Source: Psilocybe cubensis
Lineage: Eukaryota
DNA length: 64,000 nt
NCBI GenBank assembly: GCA_017499595.2
Contig: CM039000.1
Span: 372,001 to 436,000, forward strand
Direction: 5' to 3'
In this document: in pieces, positions 3,249 to 49,688 of the stretch
Numbering within the stretch: the stretch's first letter is position 1
How the letters are laid out: every line of letters starts with the position of its first letter
Notes under the pieces: generated by a model
The model's input: only the letters and a program-made list of their open reading frames with translations
Database searches by the model: none
Told to the model about the DNA's origin: nothing
Position numbers and translations under genes: made by a program

Positions 3249-5665
3249 ATGTCCTCGAATTCACTTTATTTGTTGACTTCTGGACTTGCTCTGCGGCCTG
3301 CAGACCACTTTGGACGAGGATCAGTGGAAGTTACAAGCCCCGCGCCCGGGAATGGAGAGGGCGCAGTCCGCCGGCTCGCTGTTACCTCTACACAGCTACT
3401 CGAGCGCCCCCATCCATCTGTTTCCACCATCCCTGACGTGGTAGCGTACGCTGCTCGTACGTTCGGCACGAAATACAACGCTGTGGGATGGCGCGATACG
3501 ATCAAGGTACACGAAGAGATCCGCGAGGTCGTTAGCGTCGTCGACGGCGAGGAGGTCAAGCAGCAGAAAACATGGAAGCTGCTCGAGCTGAGCGACTACA
3601 AGTTCATGAATTTTATTCAGTTTGCAGAGTCGGTGAGCGAGGTGCGCAATGGGCTGCTGAGGCTTGGGATCACAAAGGACGACGTGGTCAATGTGTACTC
3701 GCAGACGAGGTACGTCGCATTGATCGCTATACCTTGACATCCGAACCCGATATCATGATGGCAGTGTAAATTGGCAGCTTGTTTCTCATGCGTGTGCTGC
3801 TATTTCGACGGCTATAGCGACGGCCTATGACACTTTGGGTGTGGATGGTTTGACCCACTCATTGAACGAGCCGGACTGTGTTGCGATATTCACCAATGCT
3901 GACCTCCTACCAACTCTTGCCCGCGTTATCCCCAACACCCCGAAACTAGAAGTGGTACTGTATGATGGAACAGCCAGCGTTGCGGTCCTAGCTCAACTGC
4001 AAACCGCGCGGCCCGACATCAAACTAATGCATCTCGACGAGCTGCGCGATCTGGGGCACAGCACCGATCAACAACTCATCACGGTCCTCGAGGAGCGCAA
4101 GCCGTCACCATCGACGCTCGCGTGCATCATGTACACCAGCGGCTCGACGGGACCTCCAAAGGGTGTATGCATTACGCACGCCAACCTAGTCGCGTCCATC
4201 AGCTCCGTCACGATCGTCTTCGGGCCCCATGTCCCCGCGGGAGACATCTACCTCGCATACCTGCCGCTCGCGCACGTCCTGGAGTATATCGTTGAGCTGT
4301 GTGCGATGTTTGTTGGCGTGACGAGCGGGTATGCGAGACCGAAGACGCTGACGGATGCAGGCGTGAAAGGATGTAGGGGAGATTTGATAGCGCTGAAGCC
4401 GCAGATTATGTTTGGGGTGCCTAGTGTTTGGGAGACGATCAGAAAGGGTGTGATAGGAAAGTTGAACGATGGTGGTGCGCTTAAAAAGGCGCTGTTCTAC
4501 GGTGCTCTGAACTCGAGGAGGAGGGGTACACCAGTACTTTCTGGACTAGGTGAGCGAATTGTGTTGAGCAAAGTCAGGGAGGCTACTGGAGGCAAGTTGA
4601 AGTTTGCAATGAACGGGGGCGCAGCAATAAGTAAAGAAACTCAAGAATTCTTGAGTGTTGCGATAATGCCCATGATGCAAGGTACGTACCATCCTTGTTA
4701 GAAGGTTAGAACATAATACATCTTTCTTAGGCTATGGGATGACGGAGTCTTGTGGAATGTGCACGCTTCTCCCACCCGAGTGCATCCAGTTTGGCACAGT
4801 TGGTCTCCCCGTGCCTTCAATTGAAATTAAACTTCTCGATGTTCCTCACCTGGGATATTTCTCCACAAATTCACCGCCTCAAGGAGAGGTCTGCATCCGC
4901 GGTCCTTCTGTTTTCAAGAGTTATTATAAACGCCCCGACCTTGATGCCGACGAGAGTATTTGGGCGCCAGACGGTTGGTTTAGGACAGGTGATGTAGGGA
5001 CCTGGAATGAGGATGGGACTTTGAGCTTGATAGACAGGTAAGTTGCCCATCCCCCACATCTTTCGGCACTCACTTGATGGCCCTTCGTAGAATAAAAAAT
5101 CTCGTCAAGATGCCAAATGGAGAGGTTAGTTCCTATAACACAGACAAAATTTTTATAAATTTTGCTTACATCGGCAATATAGTACATCGCCCTAGAGAAA
5201 TTAGAATCGTTATACAAATCCTGCGACTACGTCTCCAATATCTGCGTACACGTCATTCCAGGAGCCACGCACCCTGTAGCTGTACTATTCCCCCACGAAG
5301 TTAACCTCCGACATGCACTCTCGCTATCTCATGATCCTGCATTAGACCGTCTCAAGGGCGCGGACCTTCCCACTCTGTGCCAAGATCCTTATGTCCAACA
5401 CATCGTCTTGAAAGCCTGTAACGAAGTTGGTGCAAAGAACGGATTGAAAGGGTCAGAAGTTCTATGTGGAGTGGTGTTGACTCCCGACGAATGGACGCCC
5501 GAGACTGGGCTGGTTAGTGCCGCCATGAAGGTAAAGAGAGCGGTCATTGCAAGTACCTTTGCAAAGGAGATTGAGGTATGCCTTCGATTAATGTACGATA
5601 TTGCTCCGGTGGCTTCTAACACGTTCATCTGAAAGGTTGTCCATTCGTCTTTAGTTCGAGGTTGA
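3249..5665 (+). CDS. Long-chain fatty acyl-CoA synthetase (Faa1/Faa4-like)
   Basis: Six exons (introns ~3710-3764, 4682-4730, 5038-5090, 5125-5181, 5576-5635). Motifs: IMYTSGSTGPPKG, YLPLAHVLE, GYGMTE, GWFRTGDVG and IDRIKNLVK..GEYIALEKLE. Confidence 0.93.
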
Positions 5666-11105: not shown

Positions 11106-12027
11106 TCATAATGAATAACCATTTACATTCAATCTGAATGCGTAAATTTTCCACTTTTGCATTTGAATGGTCATTTCTCTCTTCCCTTCCAAATGGAACC
11201 CAAGCTTCTTGTAGAGATTGATCGCAGGTTGCTGGTACGACGAGGTTGTGAGGTAGATGGTCTCAATTTGGTGCTCCCGCGCAAAATGCACGACCGTTTG
11301 TATCAGTTTCCGTCCGATGCCTTTATGGCGATAGCGGGGAGAAATAACTAGACGCCGAAGCTCAGCGCTTGTTTCGTCTTCGCTGCTGTAAGCGTCTATG
11401 TGAAGATGAACATCAGGGTTGGTACACCAATAATTCAGACATGACTTGCCTAATCCAACACATCCAACTATCACAGGGCGCTTCGCGTCTTCGACAACCT
11501 CAGCTACCCAAAAACCACTTCTCCAATTGCGAGAAGGAACGCCTTCACCGTCCGCTTTCTCGTCGACGACATCAAGCTTACAATAGTGCTTCCCGATGTC
11601 CGCCAAGTCCCCCGTGAGGCTTTTCTCGATATGACGGTCAAAGGCGGAGCGCAGCGAGAAGCGAGAGTAGCAGAATATCGAGGTTCCCAATATTGGTAGC
11701 ACAATGCCTGCGCTCCGAACTAGGCCATGCGTTAGAATTAGCAACGCAAGACCAAAGATAATTATCAAGTAAGAGGCCAGAGATATCGGTGTTGTGTATT
11801 GCTTTCGCATAGCCAGAGTAAAAGGGGATTCATCTATGATGTATTATTTCTTTGGTTGAATGCATTTGTGGAGTTTTAGGGACATTTATCGACGTACCCC
11901 CAACCAGAATATTCAGAAATATTTGTCTAGTTTCCTCGAAGTCTGAATTGCTGTACGGGCGAACATGAATCTGGGGCTCAGTTACAGTCCCTTTAACTTG
12001 CACAGACTGGATAGACTGGGATGACAT
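11106..12027 (-). CDS. GNAT-family N-acetyltransferase (NAT8/camello-like, with a hydrophobic insert)
   Basis: Motif A ELRRLVISPRYRHKGIGRKL and motif B LTTSSYQQPAINLYKKLGF. N-terminal exon with VRPY, intron ~11835-11895 and a probable GC-AG intron 11396-11449. Confidence 0.88.
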
Positions 12028-25821: not shown

Positions 25822-27854
25822 TTGTCTTTATGATATGGTATGATAGGTCCAGCCTAGTGTCGACAGTAACTGTCAGTGTCACGGTAGTGCTTGATGTTGG
25901 ATCAATTAGGTCGTGAACTGCAACAACAAACAGAAAGAATGGCTTACTTGTAGTGGATACAATGCGCCCGGCGTTGAAAAGAAGACTCCAGGAATGAGGG
26001 TTATATACATTATATGGCACCCGGATACACCGCCTTGTCCGTGGGCTGTGGCATGATAGTGATGAGCAGGAGAGCGTGTTTCATTACGGTTCCACCGCCG
26101 GTTGTCGGGGATGTCTATTAATAGAACATTTATAACATTGCTTCACTATTTGGACTTATGCTCCGCAAACAAAAGTGGGATTAGTGGATCACGCTGAGTC
26201 ATTATTAATTTGCAACAAGATTACGAGTGATAGCGCATAATTAACGCTTCCATCTTTACAGTCACTCGGACCCACAGTTCTGAAAGCGCTTCCTCTACTA
26301 CAATTTGTGGTATTCTGTTTTGGACCATTAATCATTGTGGAACGACAGATGTCCATTAATTCATAAAGCTTTGAAAATTCCTTTAATTTAGAAAACAGGC
26401 TTGCACTCGTCTCAGTTATGGAGATAAGCTGCAATAGAATCTATAAATTATGTACTGCTAATAGCTTTAATATAAATATATGATAATTCATAATTCTGTA
26501 AGAACTTAGGAAACAACCTGGAAACAACGCAAACCAGCCTCGATGGGACAAAAATAGATTTCTGTCACCACGTGGTGGCTGTGTACTCAGTTTTTTTTTG
26601 GTTCCGTCCGGACGCATTTGGGCATGTTCTCGAAATAGAAGACATACGTCATCGAGCCCCGCACAGACGCAATGGTTATTTCGTCGCCCAAAAAGGCTTC
26701 CTTATGACTGAATTTGTGGGTGCTTTCGAAAATCTTTTGATTAAAACTCCGATTCATCCCGGTATAAAGCATCGATGGTATTTTGAAAAGCCAATTTTCG
26801 TTTTTCCTTCCCCTGTTTCCCCTCCCCTGTTTCCCTCTCCTCTCGTCTTCCTGCTTTGACAATTTCTTCCCTCGCTGCCGGTCGGTTTCTTGCCTTCGAT
26901 TCAAACAATATCTACATACAGGAAAGGACTAGCCGTAATAGCGGCCTTTACATAAGTGCTTATGCCGGGGAACGTTATCGTGTTTCGGTAAAGGCTCGCT
27001 TTTTTGTTTTTGTTCATCAAAAGGCGCATATAATTAACACTTAATTACAGAAACAATGAATTTTCAACCATGCGACTTCAAGCTCGCGCATATATTAACA
27101 CTTTTTGCTTCCATTATTTATGGAACTTGTTACTTACCTCCTATGGCCATTTGGTTCCCACCTATTGGCAAGTTATATGCGCTTACTTATCCCTATACAC
27201 TATGAGGCTGACAGTCCATGTGCACTCTGATTGGTCACTGGCTTCCAATAATGCGTTTGTAGGAAAAGCTATGTGTCAAGTGGATTTGAATCAAGAAAGT
27301 TTTTTGTCTTATACTTTGATTTGCATGAATTCACTCAGGTCATCCCCCTAGATAAACCATGATATCCATGCTCCGCACTTCGAGGTCCTTATGACTAGCA
27401 CTTTACATCATTTCACTCTCCAGCATTGACTCCGAAAACTCCAGTTCGTTGGCCGAATCTCACCTTGATGTTATCGTCTATGGATTTATTTGTCTAAGAC
27501 TGGATGTGTCCGATAACTGTTTGCCGTGAGTTTTTTTCCAGAGGATGCCCATTCTTGTTTTCTCTTTGTTTGCTCACCATTTAAGGTCGGCCGGTTACTA
27601 TTTCGGTAATTAAGGCACGCATGTCACATGTGAGCTTCATATTCCCACGTCTTTGACGCGAGAGCCGGCACAACAGCTAAATGCGGATGCCGCCTTTGAT
27701 TGTGCTTATTTGTACACCCGAGAAACAATAGGCTTATTGTCCTGGACATTGTCGACTCTAGCATTGTCTGCTATAATTGATTGTATGAGCGAAGTGATAA
27801 TGGTTTCTTTCTTCCCTTTCCTTTCTTTATTCCTTTCTCTTCATTTCCTTCACC

Positions 27855-30800
27855 ATGTCCGCTTACGACCTTCATGACCATTCACCCCGTTCGTCTCTTG
27901 ACTCGAACGACGACATCAAACTAAACACAGTCGACGCGACATCCATGCCCCCGCAACCTTCACCTCCTGCGATCCCCCCCTCCATTCGACTTCTATTTTC
28001 CTTCGTTCCACGACGGAAGCTTCTACTCTTGGTCCTTCCGGCTATTCTCACTTCAATCATCGCTGGCGGCGTTGCTCCCTTTATGACATATGTTGTCGGG
28101 CAAGCATTCGACGCCTTCGCCAAATTCCCCCTCACTCCTAATCCTCCACAATCTGCAAAAGACGAACTTCTTCGAGGTGTAGGGATTGCTGCCCTCGAAC
28201 TCATTGGCTTGGCTGTTGGTGCTTTGGCCTTGAGCAGCATTACATCAAGTCTGTGGATTTGGATTGGCGAAACCAATGTGATGGGTCTGCGCAAGACTAT
28301 CTACACCTCCGTCTCTCAGAAAGATCTCTCATGGTTTGATGGCCATATGGGATCTGAAGAAGACGCTGGTGCTGGAGGTCTTATGGCAAAATTCTCTCGG
28401 TATGGCACTCTTTTTCCTTTCGTACTTCCATTATTCACGCCTTTTTTTCAGAGAAACTGACGAAGTTCGAATGGCTTCGTCCCTTGCATCAGGGATGCTC
28501 ATTCAATATCTTACCACATGCGTTACCTGCCTCATCCTCGCATTCATGCGATCCTGGGCGCTCACTCTGGTCATCCTCTCCGCCCTACCCATCCTTGTCA
28601 TTGTGCAAGGCCTTTCGCAAGGCCTGGCCGCCCCTCGGCTGGCTCACGAGCGCGAACAAACTGCTGTTGCCGCAACAATTATCGACCGCGCTGTTGCTGC
28701 GATATCGACAGTCAAAGCTTTCAATGCTGCAAGCCTCGAACAGTCCCGCGCGAACGACCTCTTTGTGTCCCTTCGTCTGGCAGCGAAGAGTCTAAACAAG
28801 CTATGGGCAATCACATCTGGTATATCACAGTTTGTGATGATGGCTATGTTTGTGCAGGGGTTTTGGTTCGGCGCAAAGCTCGTTAGAGAAGGCAGGATCA
28901 GTGCTGGAGACGTGATGGCTGTCTTCTGGGCTTGCCTGATTGCTTCGAGTAACCTTCAGATGTGCGTTCCTCAATTTATTGTTCTTGCTAAGGGTAAGAT
29001 CGGCATGGCCGCTCTTCTTACTCTTATCGACTACAACCCCTCCGCTCCCCCTTCCCCTCGTAAAATCATTCCTACCAAGTTTTCCGGCGGCCTCGCTCTT
29101 TACAATGTCACCTTCGCCTATCCTTCCAGACCAACTGTACCCGTTCTTTCCGATGTATCATTATTCCTTCCCGCCAACGACACGACGTTCATCGTTGGCT
29201 CCTCAGGATCTGGGAAATCCACCGTCACACATCTTCTTTTGAAGATGTACGAACCCCAGCAGGGTCTCATGAACTTCGATGAATGGGATATGGGCCTTTT
29301 GGATCAAACTTGGCTTCGTTCACACGTTGCGTGTGTTGGTCAACAAGGAGCCGCAGGCGTTGTCATTTTCGATGAGAAGAGCGTTTACGAAAACATCGCA
29401 ATGGCGATGCACGATCATCCGAACGGACCTCCAAGCCGGAGACAAGTGGAAGGTGCCTGCCGTGCTGCATTGCTGCATGAGTTCGTGCGAGATCTACCTC
29501 AAGGCTACGATACCCTTCTCGGTGGAGGTGCAGGCGTTGGTCTCAGTGGTGGGCAGAAGCAGAGGCTTGCGATTGCACGGGCGTTGTTGCGGAATCCAGC
29601 TGTTCTGATTCTCGGTGAGTCCTTTCGCTTTCATACCATGATTCTTTCAGACTTATAGTTCACAGACGAGGCCACTTCCGCCCTCGACGCTACGTCACGC
29701 ATTCTCGTCTTCGAAGCTATCAAGCGTTGGCGACACAACAAAACGACCATTGTTATCACCCACGACCTCTCCCAAATCACCGCTCAGGATTTCGTTTATG
29801 TGCTTAAGGATGGCCGCGTCGTCGAACAGGGGTATAGGTCCGACCTTGAGGAAGTCAAGGCCGATTATGGTAGCGACCAGGGCGAGTTCAAAAAGTTGAT
29901 GGATGCTCAACGCGAGACTGGTGGTTTCCTCCCCGAGAAAGACGACGAGGAGAAGCCTGTGCCTGCTTTGGATCTACAGGAAGAGGCCGATGAGAACAAA
30001 GACAAGGAAATGCCACCGTACCTCAAGCACCAGAGCCTCGCCCTGCGACCAATGACATTCGGCGCGTGGATGTTCGACGTTCTTGACGACCTCATCGGTA
30101 CTAAGCCCGCCATCGCTGCCTCTGCCACCGTCCATCCATCCAACGAAACTCAGGAAAGTCTCGAAAATCAACCACGACGCAAAAGGCGCCCATCTTCGGC
30201 CATGTTTCCTTCGGGTCTTCAGCTTCCAACTTCTCCTGATTCCGCCCATACGGTCAACACAAGACGATACAGCCTCCCTCCTACTCCTACTTCCGCAACT
30301 TTTACTGCTTCCACCTATCGGATGTCGACGGCGACGGCGGCGACAGATAGTGTGGAGGAACTCGAATTCAATTTGCAGAAGAAGACGATGGAGAGGAGTG
30401 CTACCACCGCCCGACAAGTGAGGACTACACGGCTCACCCGCACACGGACCAAGTGGAACGGCAGCGACGCGAATGCTCTCTCCCATATCAAGGTCGAGAA
30501 GTCTGCGGTGTCCGGCGGACCAGAAGATCAAGACGCGGAGAGCGAAGAACCCCTCCCACCGTTCTGGGCGCTCATGCGTATTGCATACAGGTCCATCTCG
30601 CGCAAGCCTCTCCTGTTCTTCGGTCTCGTCGTTTGCGTAATGAACGGAGCCATGACCCCCATCTTCTCCTACCTTCTCTCCCGCCTCTTGTACGAGGTCT
30701 CCATTGGCGCTCAGGACCTCAACGCCATCAACACTTACGGTGGACTCGTGCTAGGCGCAGCGGGTATGGAGGGGTTCCTCCTCGGTCTGAAGTACTTTGT

Positions 30801-32410
30801 CATGGAGACCGTCGGAATCTCGTGGGTCACGTCGCTACGCAAGCGCGCATTCGGAAAGATCATGTCGCAAGATCGTGCATGGTTCGACCTGTCCAAACAC
30901 TCCCCCGCGCGCCTCGTGCAGATTCTCGTCAAGGATGGGGACGACGCGCGGGACCTCGTCGCTGTTGTGTGGGGTCAGATGGTGGTTGTGGTCGCGATGT
31001 TGAGCGTGGGTCTGGTGTGGGCGTTGGTCGCGGGGTGGCAGCTTACTTTGGCGGGCATGGCGATTGCACCGATTTTTGCGGGTGTGATGGCTATCCAGAC
31101 CAAGCTTGTGGCGAGGTGCGAGGTCAGGAACAAAAGAGCGAGGGAGGAAGTCGCGAGGGGATACTACGACGTGAGTAATGGTTATAGTTGTCCAGACACT
31201 GTAACTGATCCATCTTTTGCCAGACGGTTATCAACATTCGAGGCATTCGCTCCATGTCTTTCGATGGCGTGTTCAAGGCCCAATTCGATGCATCCGCTGA
31301 CAAGACTCTGGCGACTGGCATTCGCGGCGGCTTTGTGGAAGGATGCACGTATGGTGTTGCGAGCGGCCTGATCTACTTTGCTGAGGCAGCGTTGTTCTAC
31401 GTTGGCGCTGTGCTCATCGCAAACGGCACATACTCTTACCTGCAAATGGTTCAAGTCCTCAACTTGGTTGTGTTCACTGTTACAATCGGCTCGCAGCTTA
31501 TGGGTTTCAGTAAGTGATCATTTAGTCTGGATAATAATTACATCGTTGACATTTGTATAAAGCTCAAAAGATCGCGAAAGCCGTGCAAGCTACTGCCGAC
31601 TTCAACAAACTCTCCAACCTCGATACGGTTACTCATGAATCGTACGGCACGCTTTGCACTGACCTCTCCGGCAACATCAACCTCAACGCTGTTAGCTTCA
31701 CCTACCCATCCCGCCCTCTGGCTCCCATCCTCAAGAACGTCGATCTCCGCATTCGCGCAGGCGAGTGTGTCGCCATCGTCGGTCCTTCAGGAAGCGGCAA
31801 GTCGACCGTCGCCTCACTCCTTCAACGCCTCTACGAGCCAACTTCCGGTTCGGTCACCATCGGCGGCGTCGACACGCGTTTCATGGACGTTGGATACCTT
31901 AGAGATCACGTCTCGGTCGTCAGTCAGCAACCTCACCTGTTCGACGCGAGCATCTCGGATAACATCCGCTACGGCCACCCGACGATTTCAGAGGTCGACA
32001 TCCGATATGCTGCAAAGAAGGCAAATATCCACGAGTTTATTATGGGTCTGCCGCAAGGGTACGATACCCACGTTGGAGAGAACGCGTCTCTTATCTCGGG
32101 TGGTCAAGCCCAACGACTGCAAATTGCCAGGGCGTTGGTACGGCCATCGAACATTTTGATTTTGGACGAGTGCACGTCGTCGCTGGATACCGAGAACCAG
32201 GCGGCGGTGCTCGAGGCTATCTACAGCGTCAAAGAAGAAGGCGGGCGGACGACGATCATGATCACGCACAATTTAGAGGCGATGATGATGTGCGACCGCA
32301 TTGTTGTCGTGCAAGACGGCGAGGTTGTGGAAGAAGGTTCCTATGACTGGCTCATGGAACGCAAAGGCGTGTTTGCTAGTCTTGCACGCGGCGGCGAGTG
32401 GATTGGGTGA
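27855..32410 (+). CDS. STE6: Full-size ABCB transporter, Ste6/Hst6-like lipopeptide pheromone exporter
   Basis: TMD-NBD-TMD-NBD layout. NBD1 GSSGSGKS, LSGGQKQR, ILDE; NBD2 GPSGSGKS, ISGGQAQR, LDECTS. Long Ser/Thr-rich linker and four introns. Confidence 0.85.
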
Positions 32411-38498: not shown

Positions 38499-40367
38499 AT
38501 GATGCTTTTAACAGGCGCAGCTCTTGTTATTGGAGCTCTGTCTTTCGCTCATGTCGCTAGTGCTGAGCCTACAGTCGACCGGTTGGTTTCAAAGCGCTAT
38601 CTCGAGAAGAGAGGTTCTGGGTTTGCGAATGGTGGCAATCGGTTTAATAGTGGCAAGGGGCCTAATGGGAAACCGGTCAACAAGGCCAACTACGAACTAT
38701 CCTTCTACCATCTAAACGATGTTCACGCGTATGTCTCCTTTGTACTCCGTGTTTGATAATAACCTCACTCCTGCTTTTCTATAGTCATCTTGACGAGTTT
38801 CGTTCCAGCGGTTCTTCATGTACAGACACCACAAAAGGTGAGTGCAATATGACCGATCACTATTTATGGCATCTAATCAGCACATAAGGCTGCGTCGGAG
38901 GATACTCTAGGGTCAAGACTGTCATCGATTCGAAGAGAAAAACGAAAAAGAACTCCCTCTTCCTTAATGCCGGCGACGAATTTCAGGCGAGTAAAGTTCA
39001 CCAATTGCTTATCTTGCTCTCTCATATTGTTTTAACTTCAGGGAACGCTCTTCTATACCTTGTTCAAGGGGGAGAAGATAGCTCAGACCTTGAATCAGCT
39101 TGGTTTTGACGCGATGACCCTTGGAAATCACGAATTCGACGATGGAGACGACCTTCTCGCAGCTTTCTTGCGCAACCTCACGTTCCCAGTTATCTCTAGT
39201 AACATTCATTCAAAGAACCGGAAACTCGCAGCAGCTCTGACGCCGTTCAAAATTTTCAACAAGCACAACCTGGCCTTGATCGCTGTTACTACAGAAACCA
39301 CCTCGACTATCTCTAGTCCCAGCAATCTAACCACGTTCGAGGACCCAGTGATCGCCGCCAAGAACACGGTCAAATTCATCAAGAGGTACTATCCTTATAT
39401 CAACCGCATTGTCGCGTTGACCCATATCGGATACGACAAAGATATCGAGCTTGCGAAATCGACCAGGGACATCTCTTTGATTATTGGTGGACACTCGCAT
39501 ACTTTGCTCGGAAATATGACTGGAGCACAAGGCGCGTACCCGACTATCGCCACTAACCTGGACGGTGACGAGGTCTTCGTCGTCACGTCGTACCGATGGG
39601 GAGAGTACCTTGGATACATCGACGTCGAGTATGATAGACGGGGAAAGATTGTCTCCTATGAGGGGGCACCTATTCACTTGACAAACGCTACCGCTGAATC
39701 GCCTAAGCTAAAGGCTCAGGTCAAGAAATGGTCGGGCGCATTTGCTGATTATGCTAACACAGTCCTCGGTTCCACAGAGTTTCCCCTCATTCAGACTACA
39801 TGCCAGCTAGAAGAATGCACCCTGGGATCTTTTACTGCTGACTCGATGGAGGACTACCGCCCCACTGTCGACGGCGCGATCATCAACGCCGGTGGCATCC
39901 GCGCTGAAATCGACGCGGGAAACATCACCCTGCAACAAGCACTCGAATGCTTCCCCTTTGGAAACAGTATCGCTGAGCTCGATTTCACCGGGGCGCAGCT
40001 GTGGGATATCTTCGAGGGCATCGTGTCGAAGAAGAACCTTGTTACCGACGCTCCGGTGACCAGCTTTGTGCAGATTTCAAGGAGCATCCGGTTCACATAC
40101 AACCCTGCCAATCCCGTTGGGAGCCGTCTCATCACCTTGAGCATCAAAGGCCAACCTATTGTCCTCACCAAGACGTACAGAATCAGCACACTGGACTACC
40201 TTGCGACTGGAGGTGACAATTTCTGGGCTGCACGCACGGATTTTGTCTCCCTCGACACTATGGACGAGGTGTGGGCGGATTATGTGAGGGCCGTTACGCC
40301 CATCTCATACAAGGTCGATGGCCGAATCGCGACGACCACTGAGACGGTTCCCCAGAAAGGGGTTTAA
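38499..40367 (+). CDS. Secreted 5'-nucleotidase (metallophosphoesterase plus 5'-NT C-terminal domain)
   Basis: Signal peptide, HLNDVHAH, NAGDEFQGTLFY, LGNHEFD, ALTHIG, GGHSH, NAGGIR, FPFGN and DYLATGGD. Three short 5' introns, one of them GC-AG. Confidence 0.93.
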
Positions 40368-40669: not shown

Positions 40670-43281
40670 CTACCAACCGATGATACCCAAAGGGGCCTTG
40701 AAATCTCTCCTGGGGAGGAACACACCCTGTTTTCCGTGATCTGCAGAGCTGTTATCTGGATCTGGAATGCCCAATGCGCGACGCAGGGCAGGAGGCGCGT
40801 CGTCTCTGCCCACATCGATTTCGACCAGCTGCAGGCAGTTGTTGTTGCGGATCTTTTGGACATCCAAAAGTTTTCCGAGCTCAGTCTCTTTGGATACCTT
40901 GTACGTTTTCGTCTCTATTGGGTTTGTTGTACTGGCGAGAACCTTTAACAAGTCGCCGTAGCTCCATGTGACGATGTTGTGGTATTCGCTGTGGTAAATT
41001 AAACGTGCGTAAGCCTCACGGTAGTCTATTGGTTCGTCAATTTTAAATGTTAAAACTGACCCTTCCACATTATGCTGCAGTCGCTCAATCGTGTATCCTC
41101 CATTAGTAATGACGAAGATGATTGGGTTAATACCCGAACGCATAAAGCCCGAAATTTCTTGCACCGTCATTTGGCTGCCGAGTCATCATCAGTGGGGATG
41201 GATGTGAGCAAATTAAAGTTTGGTAGAAAGAGAAGGTGCACGCACAAACTACCGTCTCCGATAAATAGAATTGTCTTTGGGGCTTGGGCACCTTCGATTT
41301 CTCTGCGTGCAAGCATAGCACCATGCGTCGCGCCTGTGTTTAACATTTTAGTGTGTATTATTCGAGCATCGCATTATACATAAACTGACCCATAGACCAT
41401 CCTATACTGGCCCATAGCTTCTGGGCAAGAAGAGAGGATCCTGATGGAAGAGGGAGGTCGAGAACACCGTAACTAACGCTACCTATTAGGCCACAAACAA
41501 AATTTAATGTGTGTACATTGTATGAGAGCTATAAGCGTACCTGCTTCTGTGATAATCAAGTCGTTCTTCTCAAACCATGCTCCGAGGCGCCACCACAGCC
41601 AATCATGAGTGATTTGCTTGTCGGAATCCGTGACTGGCTTAAGTTCAAATTTGGGAACAGTGAGCTTGCTAGCCCGGTTCTTAAAGTCCTTAAGACGCTC
41701 TCCAAGTTTTGGTAAAAGTTCCTTCATCCCCACTCGAGCGTAACTTGCGAATCCAACTTCGGTGTGGTCGTAGTGAATCTGTTGAAGGGAGGCCGGTCCA
41801 TCAGTAAATGCCGCCAAGGTGGATATTGGGGATGTACATACCTTGATAGCGTTTTCGTCTTTAATTTTATAGGAGAATTTTCCAGAGTTGAAGTCGGTTG
41901 TGAGAGGACCAATCAAGACAACAAGCCTCGCTGACTCGACCTTCTTCTTTACCTCAGCATCACTCAGATCACCAATGTATACCTATAGAAAAACCTATTA
42001 AGTTGATGTCATCAGTTTATCAATGTGAAGAAAAACTAACCCCTCCGTATCTAGGAGACGTTTCGTCGACGACAGTCTTCCCAAGAGGCGTTCCGTAAAC
42101 TGGGAGATCTGTCGCCGCTAAAAAGTCGGCTACCTCTTTCTTGCAATGATGGCGACTAATGCTGACGTCCGCAATTACTAGGACATTGTTATCCTGCCAT
42201 CCCGCAAAGGCTTCAGTGAAGCGTTGGTATATGTGGGTGATTGCGGTGCTCTCAGCGTCCTTGTTGTTTGGGATTTCTTCCTTCTTCAGAGGCTCATGAA
42301 GCCGGGTTGTGACAATTTTGGTATCGACGAGGTCGGCCGGAAGGGCTATGTAAGCGGGGCGGGACTAAAAGGACGTCAGCTCTGTTACAATTAATGAATG
42401 TTGCTTGTGAGCAAAATACCTTGCTAATGCAGTCGACGATGACTTTGTCAATACTTTGGTCTACGACGCCCAGGCCAATTTCCTTCTTCGACAACAAAAA
42501 TTGGGAACATATATATGGAGTGGTGGATTTCGCAAATGTATCGTATCTGGTTAATTTGAAAGTAGCGTTCGAGATTAATGGTTGTTATGTATGAGCAAAA
42601 GAGCCGTTCAATGACGTACTTTCCGTCTCCCAAGGTGTGTATAACATTGAGCCCTTCTTCTTGATCAATACTGGGCTGTTGCCCAACGATGTGGAGGATA
42701 GGTAGCTCCTCTGCAAAAGCTTTGCGCTAAGAGTCAGAAGCGAAATTCAAACAGTCAGTCGAGTAATGCTCACATCCTGCGACGCCATTGATGGCAGAAA
42801 GCTCACCAACGCCAACACTACATTCAAATGTTTTAAGATGTGGCATGAGGGAGATAGACAGAGTAATGAACATACGTGGTAGCTAGCACACCGAGTCCTC
42901 CTCGGTAGCGAGCATATCCATCAGCAGCATAGGCCGCAATTAGCTCATTGCTGTAAACATTCGAGGCGTCAATAAATTAGAGTTGCTCGACATCGAGCGC
43001 CTAAATGATGTCACCATTCTCCGACCCATTTGATGCTGGAACTCTCTACATTATCCTGAATATTAATGACTGTATTAAGTATCTGACCTAGAGCAGTTCG
43101 TTGATGACACACATACCAGGAAATTTGCAAGGTACGATCCGGGAACTCCGAATATAGACTTTGCCAATGTTCTGTCAAATGACCAATCATCACGAGAAGG
43201 GGAATAAGTACTTACCCTAATGTTCTGCTCTTCGAGCCTACGAACGATATAGTTGCCAATTGTAATTTCTTCTGCAGCCAT
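40670..43281 (-). CDS. Pyruvate/indolepyruvate decarboxylase-family ThDP-dependent enzyme with atypical active site
   Basis: Many exons splice in frame: FGVPG, CNELIAAYAADGYAR, GVGELSAINGVAG, HTLGDG, LWASIGWS, and the ThDP/Mg motif GDGSLQMTVQE...TNGGYTIER. Confidence 0.92.
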
Positions 43282-44531
43282 AGATCAAGAAAATTGGATG
43301 AGGACTGAAGTACTGAGGGGGAAAGTCTGGGTGACGTTGGAATATAAATGCAAATGGTCAAGCTAATTTATCAAAGTGGACGCACTCACCTTTGGTTAGA
43401 AGTCCTTACGTAAAAGCAACCCCAGAACCACAAAAGAATGAATCGATGGTGGATAATGTCTATCTATCTTTGACGACTGGCCGTGAACAATGAAGTGACA
43501 TGTTCCTTGTACCCCTGTACATGGGCTTAAGCACATGTTCCAGCTTCTCCGGTGAGATTATAACACCGGCACTGCATCTCCTCAACTTAGAAGCAACAGT
43601 GCAAGTTAATTTGGGTCTTCTTTGACATCATGGCCCTAAAAAGGTCAATGGAACTCCACATTTGTTGGAGATATATGTGTCGAATGTAAAGCTGCACGAA
43701 AATTAGTTATGTGCTAAGATAAATGTGAGATTGGAAGAAGGAAACTTGACAGGGTCAAGGGCCCTGACGAGGTACATCGACAAGCTAATTTGCGGTGAAC
43801 GAACGAATGGATGAATAGGAGCTCGAACTTATTACAACTAGTACGGATGGTCCCCTTCATTGAATACAAACTTCTATTGTAACGCCGCTGGGTATTACTG
43901 GACAATTGACAGTTAAAGAATGTAGTAAATGAGATGTTGGAGATATTGGGGAGGTCAGATTAGCACCGGAAAGAAGCCATCGGTGACTCGGAAGCAAAAT
44001 TCATTTCGATGTGATCATAACGCGGTCCAGGGGTCGCCAGTTTCTCTCCAAATTCCCAAGAAACTTATCAATTAAAAACAAGGGATACAGGTTATTAACT
44101 GTATATGATCTCAGGCGTTTTAAGACCCCCGATTATACGATAATCATTATGATGAAAGATAATGTCATTTTCTCCGCAGCTGAGACTCCAATGTATTCTG
44201 ATGATCCAAACACGAGGTGGGGTTGAACATTCTAGCTCTCAAATTTTGGCAGCTAGGGAGAAAACGCAAAGACGACAGCTGGAATTGTGGCGATATGAGG
44301 AGCAAGAAATTGATAACGTCCCGCCACAATAAACGAAGAAGTCTTGTGGACCTGTTGTGGCTAAAATACGAAAATAACTTGGTGACTTGCGCTGTAGAAA
44401 GAAGAATGACGCCGGAAGTCACTTTCCTGAACTACAGACGAAAAATTTCATGAACATTGGAAAGGTATAAAAGCTCCAGCCTCAAACACGAAGACCGCAG
44501 TCCGACTTTCGAATCGTCTGATATTGCTACC

Positions 44532-46659
44532 ATGGCCAATACCGCTGGGAAATCAGATCCGTCCTCTGTGTATATCAAAGCTACGCAGTACTTCGTCAAC
44601 CAGAAATTGGAGGACCTAAAAAACAAGACCTTCGACTTCAAGGAGATTTCACAGGGAGACAAGCTTACTTCTGGATCGCTCTCCTGGAATGAACTGCGCT
44701 CTGACTTCCAGGAAGATGTCATCACTTCATCTCGCGTCGCTATCATAGGTGCTGGTGTGGCGGGCCTCAGGACTGCCATGCTTCTGGACAAGCTCCAAAT
44801 ACCCTACAAGATTTTCGAGGCCAACGATGGTCCGGGTGGTCGCCTTTTCACCTACCACTTCCCATCCGATGACAAGAGTCCGGCTGGGAAGCATGACTAC
44901 TATGAAGTTGGAGGAATGCGCTTCCCTGATAACGCTGCCAACAAGCCCACTTTCGATCTGTTCAAAGAACTCGGATTCCACTTCCGAAATGACCAGAATC
45001 CAAACGGGGAACTTATCCCTTTTGTGTACGGCCTCGACGACAACATTAGGTACTTCAATAGTAAGTGGTTTTATCAATTGAAAGTATTATTTGCATAGTG
45101 ACTCACATATTTTGTTTAGACATCACGTCCACGGCGAGACAGGTGGCGGATGGCTTCAACCTTTTCCAAGAAGCCACTCCAATCGGAAATGTACGCTTTG
45201 ATGTTTTCGAAATCCATGTACTGTTAACAAGTCTCTGCAGGTCCCGCAAGACTTTACAGATATGATCGACACCGATGAACAGGGAAATGTGTACCGCGGA
45301 GTGGATGCTTGTTTCTATAAAGCCTTTAACGGACTTCGTGCCAAGCTTCTCGCCAATTTTGACGAAGAGTGGCCAAAGCTTTTAAAAGAATGGGACTGGG
45401 CATCAACGCGTTCGTACCTTGCTCAGGGACCAGAGTTGAAATTCCCAACCACTGTCATCGATTGGATTGAGAAGCACAAGTCTGGAACTGGACGCTACTC
45501 AAGGGCTGTAGTCGAAGTGAGTGCAATTTCTATAGTTATTAATTTGAAGAGCCTGACCACGTACTTTAGGAAGTTCTGGAATCCATCACCTTTGATCACC
45601 CCAGGTCTGAACATTTCGACTGGTGGTGCATCGAAGGCGGCAGCGAAGGATTGATCAAAAAAATGCTCAGCACTCTGTCGACTCAGCCGACCTATAACAG
45701 CCGCGTCACAGCAATCTCTGAGCAAACCACCCTTGACCCATGCAAACGTATGAGGGTCAGCATTCATGGCCAAGGTGACGAATACTTCTCGCATGTCGTT
45801 TCCACCGTCACCTTCTCTGTCCTTCGCACCATCGACACCGATGGCGTGCAGATGAACTTTGGTCAACGTGAGGCCCTTCGAGCTCTGAACTACGGCCAGT
45901 CTATAAAAATTGCGATGAAGTTCAAGAACCGCTGGTGGGAGAACAAGAATGTTGTTAAATCGTCTCAAGCCGGAGGAGCGAGCCGAACCGACAGGCAAAG
46001 TCGCGTTGTCGTTTATCCCAGTTACGGTTTGAATGAAGATGGGCCTGGTGTTCTGATGGTCTCCTACAATTGGTTTGTTTTTGTCATTTACAGCTGAAAA
46101 ACGCTAAACGCACTGTTTCAGGGACCAAGATGCCGCGCGTTTCGGTTCGCTGATCAAGAACACCGAATCTCGCACTGAACATCCAACCCCTGGCCGAACT
46201 CCAACCAAATTCGAGCAGGTTCTCCTGGACCAGATCTATGAGGATCTCACCATATTGCACGCGCCTGACAAACAAAAGCGAGCTGAATTCAAGAAAAAGT
46301 TGATCGATGATACCCTCGATTTCCATGCATTCGACTGGTACCACAACCCATACACCATGGGCGCTTTTGCACAATTCACGCCGGGACAGTTCAGCACGCT
46401 GTACGCCGATATCTTGCAGCCTGCTGGACGTCATGGAAACTTCCACTTTGCCGGGGAGCTTGCCAGCCACCACCACGCGTGGGTTGCTGGTGCCATCGAC
46501 TCTGCTAATCGTGCCGTTGGCCACATCGAGCAAGATCATTTCACCAAGGCGAAGTGGTACAAGGCGGGCTCCAAAGTGCCCAGGAGTTTGGTGTTTGATT
46601 CTGATGATAGCATGGTCCTATATCACTTGCTTGGAAAGGTCACGGAGCAAGCTTCGTAG
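44532..46659 (+). CDS. L-amino acid oxidase / flavin amine oxidoreductase
   Basis: TATAAA near 44465. Rossmann VAIIGAGVAG, GGRL, EVGGMRFP, IEGG, VVVYPSYG, MGAFAQF and FAGE...HAWVAGA. Four introns. Confidence 0.92.
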
Positions 46660-47243
46660 GGAAAGATTGAGGTAGCGTGGTATGACACAACCTAAAGAGG
46701 CATTTACGGATATTGAGTTAAATCGAATGTAAACCATCAGTTTTGTCAATTCAAGATATGGTGAAGAACGTACAAAGATGTTTGGAGTTATTGTTAGGGC
46801 TTTCAACTAGTTTGAGACGCAGTTCGAGACGTTTGCTGCTGAAAATGCCACTGGAATGGAACGATAGGACTCGGACGGGGGTGTAGTATGAGGGTGGTAG
46901 GTTTCCCAGCGAGTCGGCAAATACATTTTTTCTGATTATCCCGGAATCTCTAGTGAGATCAATTACTCTTCGAAGAGGATAAGTTGGCTCAAGTGTTATG
47001 AAGAACTTGCGAAGAAAGGGCAAGAAATAATAGTAGTTGCATTATGTAAGTTCTACACGTGACCGTGTAACCATAACCCTATACCAACTGGTTCAACTTG
47101 GGTTGGGCAACACTGTCTCGTCTCGTCTTCCTTCTCTGGTCTTTTCTCTTGCTTTTCTCCCTTTCTATTCTCCCTGGCCTATGAATATTAAAGAAATATC
47201 TTTATAACCGGATCATTCGTACTATAGCAGAAAGCCTTCAGAG

Positions 47244-49688
47244 ATGTCTGTCAAATCACCTGCTAAAGCACAAGGCACCTCGAAGGATGTAGGCTTTATT
47301 CCCGTCGTCTTTCCTTTGGACCGAAATATGCCATTTTCGCCGTCAATTAAAGCTGGATCCTCAAGTAGAAAGGGATCCAGCAGTCTTTCATACATGGAAA
47401 GGCTCCAGCAGAAGCACAACGCAATGGCACGGATTGCACGAGACCAACCGCGATCCCTATCGCTCAGCGACCAGAACACAGAGGTCGACAATGAACGCGT
47501 CCTTTTGCTGAGCAAGAAAGTCCGCGAAGCATGGCTGAACACGGATGCAAACTCGGCGGATGGTAAATATACGTTTTTGGCACAATTACTGCGCCTGAAC
47601 TCAACCAGCGGTCTCGATGGCCGCTGGAGCGCCGTGCGCACCGATCTTCCACCTGCGGAACAGCTTCCTGGAGCGCGCTGGATTAACGCAAAGACTGAAG
47701 TGGAATGGAAGGAGTGGGAGAAGAGGTACGAGACGGAACGAAGGATCAAGGAAAAGGTGGAGAAGTGGAAGAAAACGGTGGAAACGCCCAGTACGCAGCC
47801 CAGTTTTCAAGACAGCTTGGTATCGAACTCGGCTTCTGCTCGCAAAGGCTCCAAGGCAGCGTCTGCCAGCATCCTTTCAGTCCCCGCAGATCCGTTGAAA
47901 AATTCCACACCCTTCGGATTCTCTGTCGTCAAACGTGTTCAGAAATCTGCTGTAGGCAAACCCTCTGGATCGGGGTCAGGTAAAGCAACAGTACCACCGG
48001 AGAAACCTGGAGATAGTGCCTCTAAACCTACAAAAAGTTCACATAATAAACACATAGCTGAGTTGGGAGAACATGTATGTATTTCCATTTTCAACACTTT
48101 TTACCAACTCAAACATGTATCTTAGTCTTTTATTCCTCCATCCTTCCCTCCATCTCAACTCCTAACATCGACACCTAAACATGCTGCGAAACCCTCCAAT
48201 CCCCGAAAACCTGATCCAATACCCCACATTGCCCCGCCATCAACTTCTGAGAATTCCATCTTACCCGATCAGCCTCTATCCTCGCCTCGAGTGACCAAGA
48301 CATATGGTCGTCAACACCCAAGTCCGAGCCAACCACTCGAGGCATCTGCCTCTTTACCTGCGATACCCGTCACCCCTACCCGCAAGAGAAACCCCCATAA
48401 TGACATTAATGACGACCTAAATGACGACGACAGTGTCTTCAATCTTAACAAGAAGCGACTCCTTGCTTCACCTGCGACACCCGATAGCAATACTAACAAG
48501 GAAAGGGCATTGAAGAGAGCGCGCACCCTTTCTGAACTTCAATCTTCTCCTGTGATACCTCCTCCAAGCAATAGAAGGGACAACGCCAATGTGCTTCGAA
48601 GTCCTCGCACTCCTATCACCTCGAAACGCTCTGTGCTCCCTCCCGTTGCTAACCCTCCTGTAGCAGCTACATCCGAGTCAAGCCCTGATCCATTGTTGGA
48701 AGCGTCCCCATATCATCTTGGGAATAGTCCCAAGAAACAACCTGCCATTGAGGTACCCACTCTCATTAATCTTCTGGCAAGCGCGAAGAAAGGAAAGAAG
48801 ACCAGCTCTTCCAAGCCTCCCAGTGCATCCAAGGGTAAGGGAAAAGCCAAGGAGACCACAACCCTGGATGCGGAAGATGGAGTACAAGGCAAAGAATTAC
48901 ACTCCGATGTCGGAGATGATGTGCATGAAAAACCGCCTGCTGCACCGTTCCTTTTCCCCGAAGCTGTAGTTGAAGATGCAGTGATGACAATAGCGAAGGA
49001 TACAGCAGAACAAGAACCGGTGCATGCAGACGTCAATGATCTCCCCGAGAGGGAGAAGGACCACCACTTGTTCGAACCTTACGGCAATTCTGTTGTAATG
49101 GCGTATGAAGACCCCAATCTTCTCCCTGTTGATGATGCTGCGTCCCCGGCCAAGTCTCTCTCGTCGCTGGCAGGCTCTGACTCAGAAGATGATGAAATTG
49201 AAAACGTCGACGATGGGAACAACTTCCTGCTTTCTTTCAACCCGGTGGCTACATCCACCCAGCAGCATCGAGGTCCATTCGCCAGCTCGGCTTTGAGAAA
49301 TGAACTTGGCGCAAACAATGTCTCAGCGGAAAAGGAGAGTCAGCCCCCACCAAATTTGAGTCAAATGACCAAAGATAGCTGGGAGAGCATTTACGCGCCG
49401 ACGTCGATGCCCAAGTCGAAATCAAAAGCATCCTCCAGCAAGTCCAAGTCGCCCGTGCCGCAGCCACAGCCGCGACATTATCAGATACCAAAAACGGATC
49501 CGGTTACGAGCTCCAATCCATTTGCGTATAGCTCGCAGCTCACATCCGGTGTGGCGAAGAATGTTTATGATGTTGACCGGCTTCTAGAGCAGGATGTTGA
49601 GCTTGCGTACTCGGGATGGATCAGGGATCCTTATGCGGATGAGATCGAGGACGCGGATGGGTTCAAGGATCCTGAGTCTAGTCCTTGA
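47244..49688 (+). CDS. Hypothetical Ser/Pro/Lys-rich, largely disordered protein
   Basis: Two long ORFs joined by a GT-AG intron (~48074-48125). Many S/T-P sites and basic clusters; no recognisable domain. Confidence 0.75.

Follow-up and report, generated by a model that had tools for sequence, protein, structure and literature searches.

Pyruvate decarboxylase (PDC) and its relatives are textbook models of thiamin diphosphate (ThDP) enzymes, and the quartet Asp28, His114, His115 and Glu477 (yeast numbering) is taken as their defining catalytic set. Among these relatives, KdcA and KivD of Lactococcus and the indolepyruvate decarboxylase (IPDC) of Enterobacter act on amino-acid-derived 2-oxo acids; they keep the Asp and the HH pair, unlike the enzyme described here, and their 2-oxo acids come from transaminases and not from an adjacent oxidase gene. 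A passage of a transketolase design preprint (10.1101/719906) names Asp28, His114, Phe292, Thr390, Ile415, Ile476, Glu477, Asn488 and Gln552 as PDC residues around the cofactor and substrate, and places Asn488 close to Glu477. The benzoylformate decarboxylase (BFDC) of Pseudomonas putida is described, in part of PMC6028569, as an active decarboxylase with a Ser where PDCs have an acidic residue. Here we report on a 64,000-nucleotide stretch of the Psilocybe cubensis genome (assembly GCA_017499595.2, contig CM039000.1, positions 372,001 to 436,000; hereafter the window), which carries a PDC-family gene encoding Ser at the Asp28 site and Ile-His at the His114-His115 site. We call it the SIH gene (Ser30/Ile116-His117). 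It lies beside a gene for an L-amino-acid oxidase (LAAO).

We propose, with a probability of about 0.5, that the SIH gene encodes a functional, neofunctionalised ThDP enzyme that would decarboxylate the 2-oxo acid made by the oxidase, most likely with release of an aldehyde. The more general statement, that the ThDP enzyme is functional, re-purposed and coupled to the oxidase, appears very probable. A preliminary description of this DNA, drawn from the letters alone, had already read the enzyme as re-purposed and not broken; the present analysis adds the pairing with the LAAO gene, further fixed active-site changes, the loss of Cys221 and a conserved C-terminal tail.

Gene structure and catalytic residues of the SIH enzyme

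The SIH coding sequence (CDS) occupies positions 40673..43281 on the (-) strand. It has 14 exons (43281-43216, 43158-43117, 43055-43015, 42950-42876, 42817-42774, 42719-42620, 42546-42420, 42364-42041, 41982-41842, 41778-41541, 41482-41390, 41333-41246, 41174-41061 and 40988-40673, all on the (-) strand) and is closed by a TAG stop codon at 40670-40672 (-). The exon model was obtained by a scripted search for GT..AG introns whose removal lets the window encode the 603-residue protein P0001, named 'Pyruvate decarboxylase [Psilocybe cubensis]' at NCBI. One 14-exon model was found, in which all 13 introns are GT..AG and the spliced translation is identical to P0001, letter for letter.

Splicing was examined in two public runs, X1 and X2, whose RNA nature is presumed; the support rests on contigs without introns, and depths were not taken as a rank of expression. 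A single X1 contig of 1736 letters has all 13 introns of the SIH gene spliced out, with junctions exactly as modelled, and X2 contigs back 3 of the 13 modelled junctions. An X2 contig over exon 6 (42620-42719) is spliced at both ends and shows 0 differences from the window; the codons for Ile-His are therefore present in a spliced transcript. Two further runs, X3 and X4, carry the gene as unspliced DNA. The preliminary description had left room for another splicing pattern that would restore the D and HH residues. No such splicing was seen: the X1 contig matches every modelled junction and X2 covers the Ile-His codons. A mis-spliced gene model was thus rejected on the open 603-codon frame, the 13 canonical introns and the spliced contig matching each junction.

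The Ser30 codon lies at 43135-43137 (-), inside exon 2 (43117-43158), and is followed by Leu32 (43129-43131, -) and Ala33 (43126-43128, -) in place of the Asn-Leu of the family (yeast Asn30-Leu31). The Ile116 codon (42640-42642, -) and the His117 codon (42637-42639, -) lie in exon 6, at the site of yeast His114-His115. In a HMMER alignment to Kluyveromyces lactis PDC 2vjy (E 2.8e-118), the best solved relative, S30 aligns with D28, I116 with H114, H117 with H115, E52 with E51 and E490 with E477. The Ser and Ile-His codons thus stand where they had first been noticed, and the alignment bears out their equivalence to the yeast residues.

The cofactor site is intact. Glu52, the cofactor-activating residue (yeast Glu51; 42944..42946, -), occupies a column that is invariant in a 47-row alignment (A1). 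The GDG motif that binds the cofactor diphosphate and Mg, Gly456-Asp457-Gly458, lies at 41251..41259 (-), and the segment Asn484-Gly-Gly486-Tyr-Thr-Ile489-Glu490-Arg-Leu-Gln493 (41075..41104, -) keeps the Mg-binding Asn/Gly as well as the counterparts of Ile476 and Glu477. Other equivalents are Ile426 for Ile415, the Ile that holds the ThDP cofactor in its V shape, Asp303-Phe304 for Asp291-Phe292, and Ile489 for Ile476. As the preliminary description had said, the activating Glu, the GDG..N motif and the Glu of YTIE are all retained (Glu52, 456-458, Asn484 and Glu490), and the pocket segments EAGSVSYG and YTIERLQ depart from the usual ones. The first of these contains Ala399-Gly-Ser401-Val402-Ser403-Tyr404 (41469..41544, -, split by an intron at 41483-41540), for which yeast has Thr388-Gly-Thr390-Ser-Ala392-Phe393. 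Three further features of the protein are His501 (40979..40981, -), a new, clade-specific His at the yeast Asn488 site beside Glu477; Ser233 (42161..42163, -), placed by alignment at the yeast Cys221 site; and a C-terminal extension, residues 578-603 (40673..40750, -), with a variable linker and an invariant Gly602-Trp603.

P0001 carries the three domains of the family in the order PYR, middle and PP, all above cut-off: TPP_enzyme_N (PF02776, 101.2 bits, cut-off 26.8), TPP_enzyme_M (PF00205, 53.7 bits, cut-off 30.4) and TPP_enzyme_C (PF02775, 50.3 bits, cut-off 21.9). An AlphaFold2 model has a mean confidence score (pLDDT) of 91, falling below 50 over residues 578-603, and its top Foldseek matches are the yeast and K. 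lactis PDCs, whose TM-scores are 0.87-0.88 when normalised to the query length and 0.92-0.95 when normalised to that of the target. P0001 is a ThDP decarboxylase-type protein by its architecture, its activating Glu, its GDG..N..G motif and its fold.

Comparison with described enzymes places it more closely. With the yeast-type PDCs (Saccharomyces cerevisiae Pdc1 and the K. lactis enzyme; 2vjy, 2vk1, 1qpb) it shares the three-domain ThDP fold at 36-38% identity and, as with the canonical agaricomycete PDCs, the residues Glu51, His115, Asp291, Phe292, Ile415, Ile476, Glu477 and GDG..N..G; it differs from both in its active-site changes, the Cys221 to Ser replacement, the Gly-Trp tail and the LAAO gene partner. 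Homology to KdcA/KivD and Enterobacter IPDC (2vbf, 6vgs, 1ovm) is full-length (E 1e-81 to 1e-89), and the amino-acid-derived 2-oxo acids on which these enzymes act are the role proposed for the SIH enzyme, although it scores 359 bits on the NCBIfam indolepyruvate decarboxylase model against a cut-off of 946. By descent and fold the SIH enzyme belongs to the PDC/IPDC lineage, with PDC, IPDC and KdcA as its closest relatives. It departs from the PDC/IPDC subfamily at two of the four catalytic residues: Asp28 is gone and the HH motif is broken, its first His being lost and its second kept, and Glu477 is present, in 7/7 members of the clade described below. The mark of the yeast-type, substrate-activated PDCs is also missing, Cys221, which we take to be the regulatory substrate-activation site of yeast PDC, being Ser233 or its counterpart in 7/7 members. 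Nor does the protein belong to the acetolactate/acetohydroxyacid synthases (ALS/AHAS), the best acetolactate synthase model reaching 111 bits against a cut-off of 509.

BFDC offers an analogy for the Ser. The preliminary description had pointed to it, and part of PMC6028569 agrees; the equivalence of BFDC Ser26 to Asp28 is read from a PG-S motif set against PG-D. In the N-terminal domain of both enzymes a Ser follows Pro-Gly, but BFDC is a distant relative (59.7 bits for the SIH protein on the NCBIfam BFDC model, cut-off 493) whose His70 and His281 come from other parts of the chain, for which no counterparts were identified in the SIH protein. The SIH Ser arose independently of the BFDC Ser, inside the PDC lineage.

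The S/IH clade and its fixed changes

Among the 120 best word-index matches to P0001, the set to which all 120-row counts refer, a tight group shares 63-71% identity with it, and the other agaricomycete PDCs drop to 47% or less. The group comprises proteins of Psilocybe (P0001), Hypholoma sublateritium (P0003), Gymnopilus junonius (P0005), Phlegmacium glaucopus (P0006) and Hebeloma cylindrosporum (P0007), with P0002 and P0004 completing the seven. At position 30, 107 rows have D, seven have S and four have E, with two gaps; at positions 116-117, 109 rows read HH, seven IH and three DH, with one gap. The same seven proteins, P0001-P0007, carry both the S and the IH, so that the clade sharing both replacements, which the preliminary description had proposed to look for, was found, with each replacement invariant in 7/7 members.

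An exhaustive HMMER search of 1.84 billion representatives, clustered at 50% identity, gave the same picture. The S/IH group collapses there to one representative, P0005, and the next match has 43-44% identity. Across P0001 and its 150 best representatives, 137 rows carry D at position 30, two carry S (P0001 and P0005), one carries E and 11 have a gap; at positions 116-117, 143 rows read HH and two read IH. The Asp28 site holds D in 105 of the 110 other agaricomycete PDC-family rows (three of the 110 belong to the E/DH clade described below) and in 123 of 129 representatives. The S/IH pair is absent from all other close relatives examined, both among the 120 best matches and among the 150 best representatives. 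One truncated protein, P0065 (476 residues, N-terminally cut, with positions 30 and 116 missing), looks like a partial eighth S/IH relative: it has the same pocket segment and an MVGW end, and LQDH after the catalytic Glu instead of LQH.

In a maximum-likelihood tree of 52 rows, the seven S/IH proteins form one clade (support 100*), nested inside the agaricomycete PDCs (99*), on a stem of 1.01 changes per site with tips of 0.1-0.3. A 32-row tree from a quick search agrees, with an S/IH stem of 1.23; over the two trees the tips span 0.1-0.33. We then scored as clade-specific any position that is fixed in at least 6 of the 7 members and unlike the residue held by at least 85% of the 110 other agaricomycete PDC-family rows, the three E/DH rows included. 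There are 47 such positions. They include the changes of Asp28 to Ser, Asn30-Leu31 to Leu-Ala, His114 to Ile and Cys221 to Ser, as well as Phe/Tyr to Val76, Thr388 to Ala, Thr390 to Ser, Phe393 to Tyr and Asn488 to His. The change of Ile480 to Gln (Gln493) is fixed in 7/7 and falls outside the 47 because the canonical rows split between Leu and Ile at that column. Four of the nine active-site positions named in the literature are among the 47 (hypergeometric p 0.003; once the two sites that first drew attention are set aside, p is 0.09). At the Cys221 site the residue is S in 7/7 S/IH proteins, G in 3/3 E/DH proteins and C in 105/107 canonical agaricomycete PDCs; at the Asn488 site it is H in 7/7 S/IH proteins and N in 106/107 canonical PDCs. 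The C-terminal extension of the clade is about 15-30 residues long and variable in sequence, its end is always Gly-Trp, and canonical PDCs lack this tail.

Within the clade these features have been held. Glu51, His115, Asp291, Phe292, Ile415, Ile476, Glu477, GDG and N..G (yeast numbering) are kept in 7/7 members, and Ser30, Ile116, His117, Glu52, Glu490, Gln493, His501, Ile489, Gly602 and Trp603 are invariant, against a mean column identity of 80%. Between Gymnopilus and Phlegmacium, the SIH orthologs are 78.3% identical and the canonical PDCs 71.7%. Both species carry a canonical D/HH PDC beside the variant (P0093 in Gymnopilus, P0019 in Phlegmacium), and the variant and canonical copies within one species share 47% identity. 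As a rough sign of selection, the window and the X1 contig have at least 14 CDS differences listed, 10 of them synonymous and 4 non-synonymous, in a CDS with 415 synonymous and 1394 non-synonymous sites.

These data leave a negligible place for the idea that the gene is a decaying pseudogene or a mis-spliced model. All that speaks for it is the loss of residues conserved elsewhere; the 603-codon open frame, the 13 canonical introns, the spliced contig, the seven conserved orthologs and the synonymous excess among the listed differences speak against it, and decay was rejected. The preliminary description had named relaxed selection as a way in which its reading could fail. No sign of relaxed constraint was seen, the SIH orthologs being as conserved as the canonical PDCs of the same species, and its judgement of an enzyme re-purposed and not broken is upheld by exons confirmed in spliced contigs, substitutions fixed in 7/7, the 78.3% against 71.7% comparison and the 10/14 synonymous differences.

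A long stem with changes at active and regulatory sites, followed by constraint, points to neofunctionalisation and not to decay. In the history we favour, an agaricomycete PDC would have been duplicated and its active site rebuilt in one burst, comprising the changes given above at Asp28, Asn30-Leu31, His114, Thr388, Thr390, Ile480, Asn488 and Cys221 together with the gain of the Gly-Trp tail; the rebuilt state would then have been kept under purifying selection.

Constraint alone could also mark a protein that binds ThDP and has lost catalysis, a sensor or scaffold perhaps tethered to the oxidase by its Gly-Trp tail; yeast Thi3 would be a comparable case. The loss of two catalytic residues with retention of those that bind the cofactor would fit such a role, as would the conserved terminal Gly-Trp on a disordered, variable linker. 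We nevertheless consider it improbable, the least favoured reading in which the protein still has a function, since the pocket residues that do not serve the cofactor (Ser30, Ile116, Gln493, His501, Ile489 and Glu490) are invariant, which suits catalysis better.

A second variant clade was found among the 120 best matches. It has three members, P0030 (Gymnopilus), P0099 (Galerina) and P0083, which carry Glu for Asp28, Asp for His114 (Asp-His), Thr for Ile476, Gly for Cys221 and Pro or Ala for Asn488; we call it E/DH. Its own support is 99-100*. It appears as sister to the S/IH clade with an SH-aLRT value of 93, unstarred, at a node that joins two longish branches; the sister relation is weakly supported and may reflect long-branch attraction, and is used here as a lead only. 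A further protein, P0289, was noted together with these three.

The adjacent oxidase gene and conservation of the pairing

The neighbour of the SIH gene has its CDS at 44532..46656 (+), with 5 exons (44532-45060, 45120-45190, 45241-45516, 45570-46072 and 46122-46656, all +) and a TAG stop codon at 46657-46659 (+). The 638-residue product matches P0270 exactly, and the gene is also present as a spliced contig in run X1. The two genes lie side by side in the window and are transcribed divergently, their start codons separated by a shared region of 1250 bp (43282..44531, on neither strand). P0270 has the Pfam Amino_oxidase domain (PF01593, 124.5 bits), and in the Protein Data Bank it best matches fungal L-lysine alpha-oxidase and 'L-amino acid oxidase 4'. 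Its identity is 74.3% to 'L-amino acid oxidase 1' of Gymnopilus and 71.6% to 'L-amino acid oxidase 1' of Hebeloma, with which it shares a 100* clade. By its fold and its orthology to a characterised LAAO, the partner gene is thus a predicted fungal L-amino-acid oxidase. For this family, the conversion of an L-amino acid to a 2-oxo acid, ammonia and hydrogen peroxide is established, and Hebeloma LAO1 has been linked to nitrogen mineralisation, both according to a passage of PMC7568252.

Upstream of the oxidase start codon, an X2 contig joins 44349 to 44421, which suggests an intron in the 5' untranslated region (44218-44531, +). Both X1 and X2 show one-letter indels at 44456 and 44505.

We examined whether the pairing recurs in other species, taking as a proxy for synteny that two proteins have consecutive GenBank accessions and come from scaffolds whose recorded lengths agree. 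A PDC variant and an oxidase have consecutive accessions in P. cubensis (KAH9483490/91), Gymnopilus junonius (KAF8880218/19), Hebeloma cylindrosporum (KIM41681/82) and Phlegmacium glaucopus (KAF8810967/68), and an exact-sequence look-up placed the paired accessions of these four species on scaffolds of the same recorded length. The P. cubensis numbering matches the adjacency seen in the window, and the proxy can therefore be considered fair in the other species. The KIM41682 sequence is that of ADM80414, the protein HcLAO1; the nearest described relative of the window oxidase is thus, in its own genome, numbered next to the Hebeloma SIH ortholog. A figure legend in PMC8181146 shows a contig map of Hypholoma fasciculare with a 'Flavin-containing amine oxidase' as gene 2 and a 'Pyruvate decarboxylase' as gene 3. 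In the E/DH clade, the accession of the Galerina member, KDR71801, likewise comes immediately before that of an oxidase homologue, KDR71802.

A 19-row oxidase tree unites the SIH partners of Psilocybe, Gymnopilus and Hebeloma (support 100*) on a stem of 1.12. Pairs of an oxidase and a PDC variant thus recur, and the Psilocybe, Gymnopilus and Hebeloma oxidases and the S/IH clade both sit on long stems in the inferred trees. In the same tree another long stem, of 0.9, leads to the Galerina partner and a second P. cubensis oxidase, P0288, which is a close relative of the Galerina partner and lies on another scaffold. Hebeloma cylindrosporum has a second LAO1 copy, P0291 (KIM41688), at least 90% identical to the first, on the same scaffold and six accession numbers after KIM41682, which suggests a local duplication of the oxidase.

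Beyond the PMC8181146 legend, we found no account of the S/IH clade or of the oxidase pairing in the full-text literature, a body that leaves most subscription journals and supplements outside its coverage; an account of the lao1 flanks may exist in the 2012 Hebeloma paper. A term search of the Psilocybe natural-product survey PMC9400892 found neither gene named in the text it covered.

The recurrence of the pair bears on the plainest alternative, namely that the gene encodes an ordinary pyruvate decarboxylase isoenzyme whose substitutions are tolerated and whose oxidase neighbour is a historical accident kept by synteny. Yeast PDCs are indeed the best matches in sequence and fold, the public annotation reads 'pyruvate decarboxylase', and the active-site residues of BFDC tolerate many replacements, as stated in part of PMC6028569. 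Set against this are the long stem (1.01-1.23) with its 47 clade-specific positions, the four of nine named active-site positions among them (p 0.003; 0.09 without the two prompting sites), the canonical PDCs present in the same genomes, the loss of the regulatory Cys221 and the second variant clade, likewise paired with an oxidase. An ordinary isoenzyme therefore seems quite unlikely to us, only marginally less so than a dead ThDP protein.

Proposed reaction and its alternatives

The above findings, an intact cofactor site, a remodelled pocket and an adjacent oxidase, make the 2-oxo acid produced by the oxidase the most plausible substrate. In the proposed route, LAAO would first oxidise an L-amino acid, giving NH3, H2O2 and a 2-oxo acid; this acid, not pyruvate, would then be bound by the ThDP enzyme and decarboxylated, most likely with release of the aldehyde. 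The acid-base and binding work of the lost Asp28-His114 pair could pass to Glu477 and His115, which are retained, and to Gln493 and His501, which are new; alternatively, Gln493 and His501 might bind a polar side chain of the substrate. The resulting route would be of the Ehrlich type, started by an oxidase.

A working decarboxylase is favoured because Glu477 is retained and because BFDC decarboxylates with a Ser at the matching place. Glu477 is reportedly the residue to which control of decarboxylation and protonation of the enamine are assigned, to judge from the title of Meyer et al. 2010.

Several points weigh against this proposal. We infer the substrate, the coupling to the oxidase and the release of an aldehyde, and the roles given to Gln493 and His501 follow from their positions in the sequence. 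The residues that were lost are close to universal elsewhere, with D at the Asp28 site in 137/140 non-gap rows and HH in 143/149 (P0001 with its 150 best representatives). In yeast, mutations of Asp28 and Glu477 shift PDC toward carboligation, as a passage of PMC4701669 states, citing Sergienko and Jordan 2001; plain aldehyde release may therefore be impaired in the SIH enzyme. Adjacency outside P. cubensis rests on the accession-number proxy. The Phlegmacium partner oxidase falls in a different oxidase lineage of the 19-row tree, and so the pairing is not with one single type of oxidase. Reference lists give the title of a paper on Hebeloma LAO1 that reportedly speaks of a 'substrate preference towards glutamate'; the product of glutamate, 2-oxoglutarate, requires no special disposal. 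In the part of another source available for the enzyme, LAO1 is described as having broad specificity. Finally, the 1250-bp region holds 8 HGATAR sites against a mean of 4.1 in windows of the same size, 6.4% of which reach 8, so that the enrichment is weak; nitrogen (GATA) regulation of the gene pair was dropped for this reason.

The behaviour of the yeast Asp28 variants makes carboligation the main rival. The SIH protein would then be a natural carboligase, an acyloin or alpha-hydroxyketone synthase in which the ThDP-enamine attacks a second carbonyl to form a C-C bond for a mushroom metabolite. The Asp28-His114 pair is lost in 7/7 clade members, the pocket is remodelled with small residues for large ones (Phe/Tyr to Val76, Thr388 to Ala), and a dedicated partner enzyme would supply the 2-oxo acid. 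The preliminary description had invoked the carboligating yeast D28 variants, and this background fits the passage of PMC4701669 cited above, which also presents the Zymomonas Glu473Gln variant as an enantioselective carboligase. Like the engineered yeast D28A/N variants, which according to that passage make acetolactate or acetoin, the SIH enzyme has lost the Asp28 side chain. Unlike these and the other engineered carboligases, yeast E477Q and Zymomonas E473Q, it is natural and conserved, carries compensating changes and retains Glu477, the residue whose loss yields the best engineered carboligases, in 7/7 members. A literature search on Zymomonas His113/Asp27/Glu473 gave no match. No polyketide synthase, non-ribosomal peptide synthetase, P450 or methyltransferase was found among the 35 long open reading frames scanned in the window, no candidate product is known, and the scores against acetolactate synthase models are far below cut-off. 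We regard carboligation as a serious but unlikely alternative. A beta-carboline or other biosynthetic-cluster reading was also considered and dropped, as the same 35 frames held no supporting genes.

We thus retain decarboxylation of the oxidase-made 2-oxo acid as the preferred reading. A broader scheme can be sketched, which we hold only tentatively and rate slightly below the carboligase alternative itself. Dark-spored agarics might possess co-evolving modules of an LAAO and a PDC-derived ThDP enzyme, in at least two versions, S/IH and E/DH, with the Asp28-His114 dyad replaced in both. The S/IH enzyme might there be a carboligase, or a decarboxylase whose acid-base set has moved to Gln493 and His501 and whose Gly-Trp tail docks on the oxidase, and the module might turn amino acids into an aldehyde or acyloin metabolite. 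Were this true, it would be the first natural enzyme of the PDC lineage known to dispense with the canonical dyad.

A natural clade that has long lived without two of the four catalytic residues would show how the acid-base work of a ThDP enzyme can be redistributed, and the S/IH proteins could become new scaffolds in biocatalysis, either for decarboxylation or for forming C-C bonds asymmetrically. The pairing with LAAO points to an unrecognised, oxidase-dependent breakdown of amino acids or synthesis of metabolites in mushrooms, Ehrlich-like, with an oxidase in place of the transaminase, in genera that include Psilocybe and the mycorrhizal model Hebeloma. It also provides a concrete and directly testable substrate hypothesis.

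Some further genes of the window were noted. An AMP-binding enzyme (3724-4698, +), a GNAT acetyltransferase (11109-11843, -) and a 'putative cyclase' (PF04199; 53575-54252, -) showed no link to the SIH finding in the window. A full-size ABC transporter, with two ABC_membrane and two ABC_tran regions over four long frames, lies at 27801-32407 (+). A 5'-nucleotidase/metallophosphoesterase gene (39036-40367, +) is convergent with the SIH gene. Directly downstream of the oxidase, at 47208-49685 (+), two long frames of 305 and 520 residues with no Pfam match are probably one large gene of unknown family.

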